From: Escherichia coli
Lineage (GTDB): Bacteria; Pseudomonadota; Gammaproteobacteria; Enterobacterales; Enterobacteriaceae
Length of the DNA: 64,000 nt
Assembly (NCBI RefSeq): GCF_003334815.1
Contig: NZ_QOWO01000010.1
Direction: 5' to 3' (one strand)
Each line of letters starts with the position of its first letter. Position 1 is the first letter of the stretch. Under the pieces are notes generated by a model. It was not told the DNA's origin, ran no database searches, and worked only from the letters and a program-made list of their open reading frames with translations. Shown here one piece after another: positions 22,338-23,153 of this stretch. A program made the translations under genes and the position numbers.

Positions 22338-23153
22338 GTGGCGCGGATAAACCGTATTTCGATCACGCTCTGTGCTTTACTTTTTACCACCCTGCCTTTA
22401 ACGCCTATGGCCCATGCTTCAAAGCAAGCCAGGGAGAGTTCTGCTACCACTCATATCACCAAAAAAGCAGATAAAAAGAAAAGCACGGCAACCACCAAAA
22501 AGACCCAGAAAACAGCGAAAAAAGCCGCCAGTAAAAGTACGACCAAAAGCAAAACCGCTTCTTCCGTTAAAAAATCTTCCATTACCGCTTCTAAAAACGC
22601 CAAAACTCGCAGCAAACACGCCGTCAATAAAACGGCCTCAGCCAGCTTTACCGAAAAGTGTACCAAACGTAAGGGCTATAAATCGCATTGTGTGAAAGTC
22701 AAAAATGCCGCGTCAGGAACTCTTGCCGACGCGCACAAAGCGAAGGTGCAAAAAGCTACGAAAGTGGCAATGAATAAACTGATGCAGCAAATTGGTAAGC
22801 CATATCGTTGGGGTGGCAGCTCACCGCGTACCGGTTTTGATTGCAGCGGCCTGGTTTATTACGCTTATAAAGATTTGGTGAAAATTCGTATTCCGCGTAC
22901 GGCGAATGAAATGTATCACCTGCGTGATGCAGCGCCAATCGAACGTAGTGAACTGAAAAACGGCGACCTGGTCTTTTTCCGTACTCAGGGACGCGGCACA
23001 GCCGATCATGTCGGCGTGTATGTCGGCAACGGCAAATTTATTCAGTCACCGCGCACAGGTCAGGAAATTCAAATCACTTCTCTCAGTGAAGACTACTGGC
23101 AGCGCCACTATGTTGGCGCTCGTCGGGTAATGACCCCAAAAACACTTCGCTAA
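22338..23153 (+). CDS. mepH: peptidoglycan DD-endopeptidase, NlpC/P60 family
   Basis: 271-aa ORF with signal peptide, Lys/Thr/Ser-rich low-complexity segment and C-terminal NlpC/P60 domain (GFDCSGLVYYAY...); recognised as YdhO/MepH. Confidence 0.9.
   Translation: MARINRISITLCALLFTTLPLTPMAHASKQARESSATTHITKKADKKKSTATTKKTQKTAKKAASKSTTKSKTASSVKKSSITASKNAKTRSKHAVNKTASASFTEKCTKRKGYKSHCVKVKNAASGTLADAHKAKVQKATKVAMNKLMQQIGKPYRWGGSSPRTGFDCSGLVYYAYKDLVKIRIPRTANEMYHLRDAAPIERSELKNGDLVFFRTQGRGTADHVGVYVGNGKFIQSPRTGQEIQITSLSEDYWQRHYVGARRVMTPKTLR

Follow-up and report, generated by a model that had tools for sequence, protein, structure and literature searches.

A predicted disordered, strongly basic linker in the Escherichia coli endopeptidase MepH keeps its charge while its sequence drifts, and may serve as an electrostatic tether

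The mepH locus

The window, by which we mean the whole 64-kb stretch of Escherichia coli DNA that was analyzed, contains the lhr-grxD-mepH-sodB region, and the segment flagged in the initial annotation (positions 22440-22700, MepH residues 35-121) belongs to the N-terminal linker of the cell-wall endopeptidase MepH. The gene, the quoted peptide (residues 42-93, nt 22461-22616), and three overlapping open reading frames (ORFs) all lie exactly where that annotation had placed them, based on the ORF list and coordinates (Table 1). Its naming of the gene is also borne out, as the sequence is 100% identical to RefSeq mepH copies and has the lhr-grxD-mepH-sodB neighbors, which together place it in the MepH orthogroup. 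The extent of the ORF matches the 816-nt RefSeq CDS WP_000101193.1, and the product does not differ from E. coli MepH (YdhO; UniProt MEPH_ECOLI) in sequence, length, or genomic context. Both the gene and the flagged linker, as part of MepH, are therefore already known.

MepH is a DD-endopeptidase with LD-carboxypeptidase activity that is redundant with MepS and MepM and is degraded by NlpI-Prc; the purified protein is an active enzyme, and cells that lack both MepS and MepM need MepH on rich medium (PMC8996183). The gene was found in 5426 of 5426 complete E. coli genomes; it is non-essential and occasionally a pseudogene. An NCBIfam profile search found no MepH-specific model above its cut-off. 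The promoter-like site upstream of mepH is weak evidence of a promoter, since one such site was found against 1.9 expected from shuffles, and a terminator-like hairpin follows the stop codon. No Rfam match fell in or near mepH; the six matches in the window are all elsewhere.

Table 1. Positions of mepH, its predicted parts, and overlapping or adjacent features in the window
Feature	Position	Strand	Basis
Promoter-like site upstream of mepH, TTAACT-18-TAGAAT	22248..22277	+	Consensus scan
mepH (ydhO), peptidoglycan DD-endopeptidase, GTG start, 271 aa	22338..23153	+	ORF list
Sec-type signal peptide, residues 1-27 (MARINR, hydrophobic core, A-H-A, then SKQ)	22338..22418	+	Read from sequence
Shadow ORF in frame +1, spurious; 93-aa product rich in K/R/P	22414..22695	+	ORF list
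Antisense shadow ORF, spurious; 66-aa product rich in Phe/Gly	22419..22619	-	ORF list
Predicted disordered region, residues 28-101	22419..22640	+	AlphaFold2, charge-hydropathy
Antisense shadow ORF, spurious; 71-aa product rich in Leu/Val/Phe	22451..22666	-	ORF list
Core polycationic K/T/S/A tract, residues 41-93, net +18	22458..22616	+	Composition
In-frame 12-nt indel CCAGAAAGCCAG ("KASQ") separating 271-aa and 275-aa alleles	22504..22505	+	Alignment with Nissle 1917
A6 run; lengthened to A7 in one set of sequencing runs, which puts mepH out of frame	22569..22574	+	
Predicted beta-hairpin, residues 104-122, with Cys108 and Cys118	22647..22703	+	AlphaFold2 strands 104-109 and 117-122
Conserved alpha-helix (residues 129-152) that runs up to the catalytic domain	22722..22793	+	AlphaFold2
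NlpC/P60 catalytic domain, residues 153-263	22794..23126	+	Pfam PF00877
Catalytic-domain site Cys169	22842-22844	+	Invariant in alignment
Catalytic-domain site His224	23007-23009	+	Invariant in alignment
Catalytic-domain site Gln236	23043-23045	+	Invariant in alignment
Terminator-like hairpin with a 13-pair stem, downstream of the mepH stop codon	23157..23186	+	Consensus scan

Domain anatomy and predicted structure

The AlphaFold2 model of MepH is only moderate (mean pLDDT of 58.8, from a 51-sequence alignment). Within it, residues 25-101 have pLDDT <50 and no secondary structure (no DSSP elements), and the mean hydropathy of the linker (0.355, against a disorder boundary of 0.51) puts it far on the disordered side of the charge-hydropathy plot. 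The initial annotation had described residues 35-120 as unstructured and suggested disorder prediction; this description holds for the core of the tract, but the disordered range runs from about residue 25 or 28 to 101, and residues 104-122 are instead a predicted hairpin with a Cys pair.

Upstream of the disordered region, T10, L11, L14, F16, and A27 of the signal peptide are kept at ≥90% in orthologs. Downstream, the hairpin residues have a block-mean pLDDT of about 55-58, and its two Cys residues occur in 40 of 40 Enterobacteriaceae-like sequences of the alignment and are missing in the Dickeya and Affinibrenneria relatives. Based on this model, the Cys108/Cys118 hairpin is probably structured, and a periplasmic Cys108-Cys118 disulfide is possible. 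In the helix that follows, H133, Q138, A144, M145, K147, L148, M149, and Q151 are invariant or near-invariant in orthologs.

The tract precedes an NlpC/P60 catalytic domain, as had been proposed; the PF00877 match (E = 2.3e-36) covers model positions 1-105 of 105. Cys169 (in D-C-S-G) and His224 are invariant in the 51 sequences and align with the catalytic residues of Spr and other solved enzymes. Gln236, also invariant, is at the aligned position of the third-triad His of Spr/MepS; polar substitutes at the third triad position are known within the NlpC/P60 family (PF00877, MEROPS C40). Forty solved NlpC/P60 chains match MepH, and these structural relatives align from about residue 132 onward, save for composition-driven matches of LytE and p60 to the linker; the structure matches include no solved structure over residues 28-131.

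Profile matches over the linker were rejected as family assignments. All 10 NCBIfam matches scored below their curated cut-offs, the best being the MepS model (86 bits against 186), and the Listeria p60 model, which spans the linker, scored 81 against a cut-off of 647; such sub-threshold scores give no family information for the tract. Pfam matches to Presenilin, Ycf1, Mucin, and Piezo over the linker (E = 0.007 to 7) were likewise discarded as composition noise.

Composition and charge of the linker

The tract had been described as Lys/Thr/Ser-rich, strongly basic, and A-rich at the DNA level, and each of these properties was confirmed. Residues 41-93 contain 18 K, 11 T, 10 S, and 8 A among 53 (K/T/S/A 89%), with a Shannon entropy of 2.5 bits compared with 4.15 for the catalytic part. 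Over the corresponding DNA (22458-22616), A makes up 48% of bases and T 11%, whereas the whole window has 24% A and 26% T. With the amino acids of the window's 54 long ORFs as background, the binomial probability of at least 18 K in 53 residues is 7e-13, and among these ORFs the highest net charge over 53 residues is that of MepH. The linker as a whole, of about 75 residues, has a net charge of ~+20 to +25 and is ~9% hydrophobic; the mature protein is very basic (pI 10.4, ~+38 at pH 7).

Tandem Repeats Finder detected no tandem repeats in 22300-22800, where the sole direct repeat is a 9-nt pair, so the low complexity of the K-rich tract is a matter of composition and did not arise by a recent expansion of repeats. 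The ortholog consensus contains no conserved short motif sufficient to call in the K-rich tract, and that consensus recognizably shows only A-S-x-Q-A-R at the start of the mature protein and, around residues 45-48, a loose D/E-KKK.

Overlapping open reading frames and variation within E. coli

The initial annotation regarded the three ORFs that overlap the linker as spurious, and both the resampled frame lengths and the near-absence of their products from predicted proteins uphold this view. When the MepH peptide was resampled with synonymous codons, the stop-free length of the 22414..22695 ORF was reached by 0.23 of resamplings, and those of two long open frames on the antisense strand, of 72 and 74 codons, by 0.11 and 0.78, these being frames whose labels are not mapped to individual ORFs. 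The open frames of the shadow ORFs are therefore no longer than the composition of MepH predicts, whereas those of genuine coding genes would be expected to exceed it. The exact 93-aa product of 22414..22695 was absent from about 15 billion predicted proteins. The 66-aa antisense product turned up on just two contigs, one from Logan and a 950-bp one from ENA, and the 71-aa antisense product has four cluster members, one of them named "Uncharacterised protein [Shigella sonnei]"; these clusters of two and four members compare with at least 1000 contigs for MepH, and the antisense-product records are mostly contigs of <1 kb. RefSeq annotates none of the three ORFs in any sampled genome.

Within E. 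coli, the linker varies in length. The 275-aa form that carries the additional 12 nt occurs in 20 of 60 evenly sampled complete genomes, and rare isolates have lost 9-61 linker residues in frame, which indicates that E. coli can do without a large part of the tract, at least over short periods. The A7 allele was detected in several Logan-assembled runs with intact neighboring genes, and only in this frameshifted allele do gene callers use the ATG of the 22414 ORF. We considered the A6-to-A7 change as a phase-variation switch and rejected it, because A7 occurs in 0 of 5426 complete E. coli genomes; it is instead a rare lineage-specific pseudogene or an artifact. Two further proteins, P0013 and P0022, read the MepH linker in the +1 frame. 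We rejected P0013 (GCA_900448615.1) as a natural, compensated double-frameshift allele, since lhr and grxD are also broken in that assembly and sequencing indel errors are the likely cause.

It is extremely improbable that the shadow ORFs are real small proteins, or that the A-rich DNA has a nucleic-acid role such as phase variation by slippage. The open frames are 66-93 codons long, the linker DNA does contain A6 runs, one of which has the A7 allele that shifts callers to the 22414 ATG, and gene callers have on a few occasions predicted the antisense products; against this stand the resampled frame lengths, the scarcity of the products and of A7, and the lack of any Rfam match or tandem repeat at this locus. 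We read the three ORFs instead as passive by-products of T-poor sequence coding for Lys, Thr, Ser, and Ala. Because the alternative frames of the linker are open, frameshift alleles and error-prone assemblies can give chimeric proteins that plausibly pass for an "exported hydrolase" and, now and then, a spurious small ORF, making this region an annotation trap in practice.

Orthologs and relatives

We compared the N-terminal region (the equivalent of residues 28-128) in 50 Enterobacterales MepH orthologs. In other genera, identity to E. coli is 13-60% in the linker and 63-94% in the catalytic part, and the length of the N-terminal region ranges from 87 to 180 residues. Its net charge is nevertheless +19 to +35 in 50 of 50 orthologs, mostly +22 to +29, with K+R fractions of 0.17-0.30 and D+E fractions of 0.02-0.10. 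A BLOSUM62-weighted substitution null, in which the E. coli linker was mutated to the identity of each ortholog, gave only +3 to +16; the observed net charge was reached by ≤0.032 of simulations, mostly <0.005, although these fractions are not probabilities, as the null is crude and the sequences are related by descent. Predicted disorder, together with rapid change in sequence and length while composition is kept, points to an intrinsically disordered low-complexity region. From these comparisons and the AlphaFold2 model, the linker is neither well conserved in sequence nor predicted to be folded, the two findings that would have contradicted the initial annotation. We read the ortholog sequences as suggesting that composition and total charge (about +25) are under selection, and not the order of residues.

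This pattern bears on the possibility that the linker is a passive spacer, a tolerated low-complexity insertion that merely separates the signal peptide from the domain and whose composition reflects mutational inertia. Poor sequence conservation, variable length, the common 4-residue indel polymorphism, the rare 9-61-residue deletions, and the redundancy of mepH are all consistent with a spacer. We nonetheless consider it quite unlikely, as the orthologs retain a net charge close to +25, much more than the substitution null predicts, even though >60% of positions change, and none of them has a tract shorter than 87 residues. The movement of many positive charges across the inner membrane during Sec export is unfavorable, and a useless tract would be expected to be lost given this cost.

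More distant relatives, including YafL-like proteins, have N-termini that are shorter and much less basic, so the basic tract goes with the MepH orthogroup. The YafL-like NlpC/P60 proteins, a sister group in Enterobacteriaceae in which one cluster is named "Putative endopeptidase YafL", share with MepH a close catalytic domain, a signal peptide, and an N-terminal extension; however, their N-termini (~81-133 residues, +8 to +17, K/T/S/A 0.27-0.40) have a recognizable AARQR..NR motif instead of the low-complexity sequence of MepH. A separate clade of NlpC/P60 proteins, with Neisseriaceae as its named members, has unrelated Lys-rich tracts (for example KKKVAKKKV and AKKPAAKK) between the signal peptide and the catalytic domain, with a net charge of +5 to +42, at least +28 in 6 of 15 inspected. 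Judged by sequence, a Lys-rich N-terminal tract has thus recurred independently in this clade, which also argues against a passive spacer. The description of the linker as unusual for a periplasmic peptidoglycan hydrolase was overstated, since a polybasic tract occurs in 50 of 50 MepH orthologs and recurs in the Neisseriaceae-named clade.

Low-complexity segments also adjoin the catalytic domain in Gram-positive NlpC/P60 hydrolases. Listeria p60/Iap and Bacillus subtilis LytE resemble MepH in having a Thr/Ser/Asn/Lys-rich segment next to the NlpC/P60 domain, and the p60 model and LytE chain align across the MepH linker, but these matches are compositional and far below family cut-offs; moreover, MepH has none of the wall-binding domains (LysM or SH3) found in p60 and LytE. 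In B. subtilis, extracytoplasmic disordered regions of PBP1 and RsgI still work when scrambled, and nonspecific multivalent contacts with peptidoglycan were proposed to explain this (PMC9732909, Brunet et al. 2022). Like the MepH linker, these regions are disordered, polar or charged, similar in composition, poorly conserved in sequence, and located on cell-wall enzymes; they differ in belonging to other proteins of a Gram-positive host and in being C-terminal, so the likeness is an analogy only.

Possible functions of the linker

The initial annotation suggested that the linker may mediate envelope or partner interactions, which is plausible and now has the conserved charge of the orthologs in its favor. 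Our preferred reading, held tentatively and at somewhat less than an even chance, is that the linker is a charge-selected, disordered polycationic region that tethers MepH electrostatically to the anionic sacculus or envelope. The region (residues ~28-101), lying between the signal peptide and the putatively Cys-stapled hairpin, helix, and NlpC/P60 domain, would act independently of its sequence, through many weak Lys contacts with the polyanionic sacculus and possibly with anionic membrane surfaces. These contacts would hold or steer MepH, an otherwise soluble periplasmic endopeptidase, on its substrate, so that the tract would have the role played by the lipid anchor and NlpI for MepS and by cell-wall-binding domains for Gram-positive NlpC/P60 enzymes. 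Binding of the linker to peptidoglycan or the envelope may in turn affect the localization or activity of the enzyme. In favor of this reading are the charge kept across orthologs despite sequence drift, the predicted disorder, the Lys-rich tracts of the Neisseriaceae-named clade, the very basic mature protein, and the B. subtilis precedent; the rare linker deletions in E. coli isolates and the non-essential, occasionally pseudogenized state of mepH count against it. In the searchable literature, we found no deletion, mutation, or discussion of the MepH linker, and no binding, localization, or truncation data.

Because what is conserved in the orthologs is charge, any anionic partner would fit, and not peptidoglycan specifically. 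The Lys tract might therefore bind anionic phospholipid heads, in the outer leaflet of the inner membrane or the inner leaflet of the outer membrane, rather than peptidoglycan. We regard this membrane target as improbable, because the linker lacks hydrophobic or aromatic residues that could anchor it and is not predicted to form an amphipathic helix, and the sacculus, being both substrate and polyanionic, is the more economical target.

A comparison with the paralog MepS (Spr) raises a different possibility. The two enzymes share their catalytic fold (MepH residues 148-266 align to Spr) and their degradation by NlpI-Prc, and in each a disordered N-terminal segment lies ahead of the first helix. 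MepS, however, is held in the outer membrane as a lipoprotein, and its N-terminal segment is short (a deletion of the first 36 mature residues was tested) and has hydrophobic residues that fold onto NlpI, whereas MepH has a cleaved signal peptide, a ~75-residue tract of ~+20 that is ~9% hydrophobic, and Gln236 in place of the third-triad His. By analogy, the disordered N-terminus of MepH could be a regulatory handle that is recognized by NlpI-Prc (or the modulator BipP) for degradation, or it could restrain the catalytic domain. MepH levels rise >5-fold without Prc and about 3.5-fold without NlpI (PMC8996183), and the disordered N-terminal segment of MepS binds NlpI and is required for the interaction (PMC11211486), in a study that also lists MepH among NlpI-interacting endopeptidases. 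MepS, however, contacts NlpI through the hydrophobic residues L24, F31, L34, V35, and V38, just upstream of its first helix (PMC11211486), and a motif of this type is absent from the MepH Lys tract in the ortholog consensus, where hydrophobic residues are few and no motif is conserved. Based on the alignment of structural relatives, the positional equivalent of the MepS segment would be approximately residues 124-138 of MepH, around the start of the near-invariant helix and outside the Lys tract. One would also expect a specific docking site to keep its sequence, which the Lys tract does not. We therefore consider a regulatory handle unlikely.

Returning to the electrostatic tether, a broader form of it would make the tract a charge-tuned (about +25), order-independent peptidoglycan or envelope tether that is convergent in Enterobacterales and the Neisseriaceae-related clade and that sets where, or how processively, the enzymes cut. 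We put this forward as a speculative extension that is, on balance, rather unlikely to hold in full.

Implications

To grow, E. coli must open its sacculus, a task of three redundantly essential enzymes that include MepH and MepS, the latter placed by its lipid anchor and NlpI. If the tether is real, it would explain how MepH, a soluble hydrolase, stays on its substrate, and it would offer a simple rule, total charge and not sequence, for a class of disordered regions in the envelope. The linker would then be a disordered counterpart of LysM, SH3b, and SPOR wall-binding domains and a Gram-negative parallel to the PBP1 and RsgI regions of B. subtilis.

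Gene identity and neighborhood

The region flagged in the initial annotation (22440-22700) lies within mepH, an ordinary known gene; both the gene and its protein are textbook features of E. coli K-12. Each of the 5426 complete E. coli genomes in RefSeq matched a 963-base segment spanning the mepH ORF, in many cases at 100% identity; all of these matches are annotated as "mepH: peptidoglycan DD-endopeptidase MepH." The RefSeq CDS is identical in extent to the ORF. The mepH region also has a second, plasmid-borne copy in one complete E. coli genome (highest number of places per genome, two; plasmids, one). 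The Lys/Thr/Ser-rich peptide quoted in the initial annotation is present at MepH residues 42-93 (22461-22616). For such a well-documented gene and protein, whose every database entry shows the tract, the tract itself counts as a known feature; no study in the literature searched reported deletions or mutations of it or commented on it. The small ORF between grxD and mepH is annotated as hypothetical protein WP_001299740.1 in some RefSeq genomes and occurs on at least 1000 contigs.

Features of the window and of the MepH protein
Feature	Position	Strand	Remarks
lhr	16990-21606	+	On the E. coli chromosome segment of the window
grxD	21657-22004	-	Between lhr and mepH
ORF of 50 codons	22086-22238	-	TTG start; grxD-mepH intergenic
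mepH	22338-23153	+	ORF of 271 codons; GTG start
Shadow ORF	22414-22695	+	93 aa
Shadow ORF	22419-22619	-	66 aa
Shadow ORF	22451-22666	-	71 aa
sodB	23281-23862	+	3' of mepH
STnc550 sRNA	25429-25819	-	Rfam match above gathering score; away from mepH
Two tRNAs	34411-34565	+	Rfam match above gathering score; away from mepH
HPnc0260 antisense RNA	34530-34692	-	Rfam match above gathering score; opposite strand, overlaps second tRNA
rydB	52684-52744	-	Rfam match above gathering score; away from mepH
RprA	58348-58455	+	Rfam match above gathering score; away from mepH
MepH N-terminus	residues 1-27		Looks like a Sec signal peptide with A-H-A at its end, as read from sequence
MepH disordered stretch	residues 25-101		AlphaFold2: pLDDT <50, no secondary structure
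MepH strand pair	residues 104-109, 117-122		AlphaFold2: short hairpin
MepH helix	residues 129-152		AlphaFold2
MepH catalytic core	from about residue 153		AlphaFold2

Composition and predicted structure of the tract

The core of the tract (residues 41-93, n=53) contains 18 Lys, 11 Thr, 10 Ser and 8 Ala, with a net charge of +18. Its Lys count is strongly biased relative to the amino acids of the window's 54 long ORFs (binomial P = 7e-13), none of which exceeds MepH in 53-residue net charge. Entropy is 2.5 bits in residues 41-93 versus 4.15 bits in the catalytic part of MepH, and the encoding DNA is 48% A and 11% T. Neither tandem repeats nor long direct repeats were found in the DNA of the tract, indicating that the bias is compositional and not the result of recent repeat expansion. 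The mature protein has a pI of 10.4 and a charge of approximately +38.

As had been proposed from the sequence, the tract precedes the NlpC/P60 domain, the sole Pfam family in MepH (residues 153-263, E = 2.3e-36); alignments to solved structures start at approximately residue 132. The AlphaFold2 model, built from a 51-sequence alignment, was moderate overall (mean pLDDT 58.8) and was therefore used just to tell disordered from ordered regions. The charge-hydropathy calculation agreed with the low pLDDT, as residues 28-101 fall far to the disordered side (H = 0.355 versus a boundary of 0.51). Whereas the initial annotation described residues 35-120 as unstructured, the predicted disorder extends over approximately residues 28-101, and beyond it lies a small element that is probably structured. 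Within this element, Cys108 and Cys118 occupy opposite strands of a predicted beta-hairpin (residues 104-122; 22647-22703) between the tract and the catalytic domain, and they may reasonably be supposed to form a periplasmic disulfide. Both Cys occur in all Enterobacteriaceae-like sequences of the alignment and in none of the Dickeya and Affinibrenneria relatives. In the catalytic part, MepH and all 50 aligned orthologs carry Gln (Gln236; 23043-23045) in place of the His that is the third catalytic-triad residue in Spr/MepS and other solved NlpC/P60 enzymes.

Conservation of charge among orthologs

We compared 50 orthologs from Escherichia, Citrobacter, Salmonella, Kosakonia, Enterobacter, Leclercia, Scandinavium, Dickeya, Affinibrenneria, Rouxiella and others. 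Identity to E. coli MepH falls to 13-60% in the linker (E. coli residues 41-100) and is 63-94% in the catalytic part. The N-terminal region (residues 28-128 equivalent) varies from 87 to 180 residues, yet its net charge stays between +19 and +35, mostly +22 to +29 (K+R fraction 0.17-0.30; D+E fraction 0.02-0.10). When the E. coli linker was mutated by BLOSUM62-weighted replacements to each ortholog's identity level, the predicted net charge was +3 to +16, below that of the orthologs. The observed charge was reached in a fraction of at most 0.032 of simulations, mostly below 0.005; because this null is crude and the orthologs have common ancestors, the fractions should not be read as probabilities. 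The excess has the same direction in every lineage, and the test is conservative because low-complexity alignment inflates identity. More distant NlpC/P60 relatives, including a cluster named YafL, have shorter and far less basic N-termini than MepH.

A separate NlpC/P60 clade, whose named members are Neisseriaceae, shares the order of signal peptide, Lys-rich low-complexity tract and catalytic domain (e.g., database proteins P0222, P0315, P0317, P0341 and P0328, the last itself named Neisseriaceae). Its tracts are unrelated in sequence to that of MepH (e.g., repeats of KKKVAKKKV, AKKPAAKK or KKDNAKKE), and net charge is +5 to +42, reaching at least +28 in 6 of the 15 proteins inspected. One Lys-rich member matches the histone-H1-like Pfam family PF07382. 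Based on the charge retained in orthologs and the like architecture in this clade, the MepH orthogroup keeps a polybasic disordered tract, and such a tract arose more than once. Both findings, the retained charge and the independent recurrence in a second clade, argue against a passive spacer, which is an improbable account of the tract.

Alternative reading frames and allelic variation

The three overlapping ORFs reported in the initial annotation were found at exactly those coordinates, and they are spurious, as it had held. When the peptide of residues 28-120 was held constant and synonymous codons were redrawn by the window's codon usage, the plus-strand alternative frame was open for at least the observed length in 23% of redraws, and the two long antisense frames in 11% and 78%; the open frames thus follow from Lys/Thr/Ser/Ala being coded with T-poor codons. 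A search of about 15 billion predicted proteins did not recover the 93-aa plus-strand product. The antisense products form clusters of two and four members, mostly from contigs under 1 kb (one is named "Uncharacterised protein [Shigella sonnei]"); MepH occurs on at least 1000 contigs in the same collection. None of the shadow ORFs is annotated in the RefSeq genomes sampled.

Because the alternative frames are open, frameshifts in the linker are slow to meet stops. Expansion of A6 to A7 at 22569-22574 frameshifts mepH in several Logan-assembled runs with intact neighboring genes (loci L004-L009), and gene callers then begin at the shadow ATG (22414) and run into mepH, producing a 246-aa chimera (P0030). 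The A7 allele was found in 0 of 5426 complete RefSeq E. coli genomes. A 275-aa "putative exported hydrolase" (P0013; GCA_900448615.1, UGAW01000002.1, locus L010) has its entire linker read in the +1 frame via two compensating single-base indels; since the adjoining lhr and grxD are also fragmented there, it is probably an assembly-error product now in protein databases and not a real variant.

Two major mepH alleles, encoding 271 and 275 aa, differ by a 12-nt in-frame indel in the linker (CCAGAAAGCCAG, adding K-A-S-Q) at 22504-22505, as seen against E. coli Nissle 1917 (locus L002). Among 60 evenly spaced genomes of 5425 matching complete E. coli genomes, the short form was seen in 39 and the long form in 20 (about one third). 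Single isolates have in-frame deletions of 9-61 residues within the N-terminal region. In two complete genomes, TUM2805 (L003) and ST2747 (L011), mepH has lost either its 5' part or most of its length and is annotated as "incomplete, missing N-terminus," which fits dispensability of the gene.

Possible role of the tract

The MepH tract is polycationic and predicted to be disordered, and it retains charge as its sequence drifts. Such a region could engage a polyanionic partner through numerous weak electrostatic contacts, and the sacculus, the substrate of MepH, would be the most economical candidate for that partner; we favor this reading tentatively, at somewhat less than an even chance. The observation in the initial annotation is confirmed, and its interpretation is supported in part. 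MepS is positioned by a lipid anchor and NlpI, whereas MepH lacks a lipid anchor and has no wall-binding domain recognizable by Pfam. A precedent is provided by the extracytoplasmic disordered regions of Bacillus subtilis PBP1 and RsgI, which still function when scrambled and for which nonspecific multivalent peptidoglycan contacts were proposed (PMC9732909). Tethering to anionic membranes, which our data do not separate from peptidoglycan binding, seems the least likely role.

MepH is a substrate of NlpI-Prc (PMC8996183), so the tract could instead be a regulatory handle in its turnover. MepS, however, binds NlpI via conserved hydrophobic residues adjoining its first helix; a motif of this type is missing from the Lys tract, and by position the corresponding MepH segment falls near where the conserved helix begins (roughly residues 124-138), making this role unlikely.

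These results are modest additions and not a discovery: a charge held near +25, an architecture that recurs in a second clade, a hairpin bearing a pair of Cys, the 271/275 polymorphism, and annotation artifacts arising from open alternative frames. The predicted disordered region of MepH is clearly constrained.
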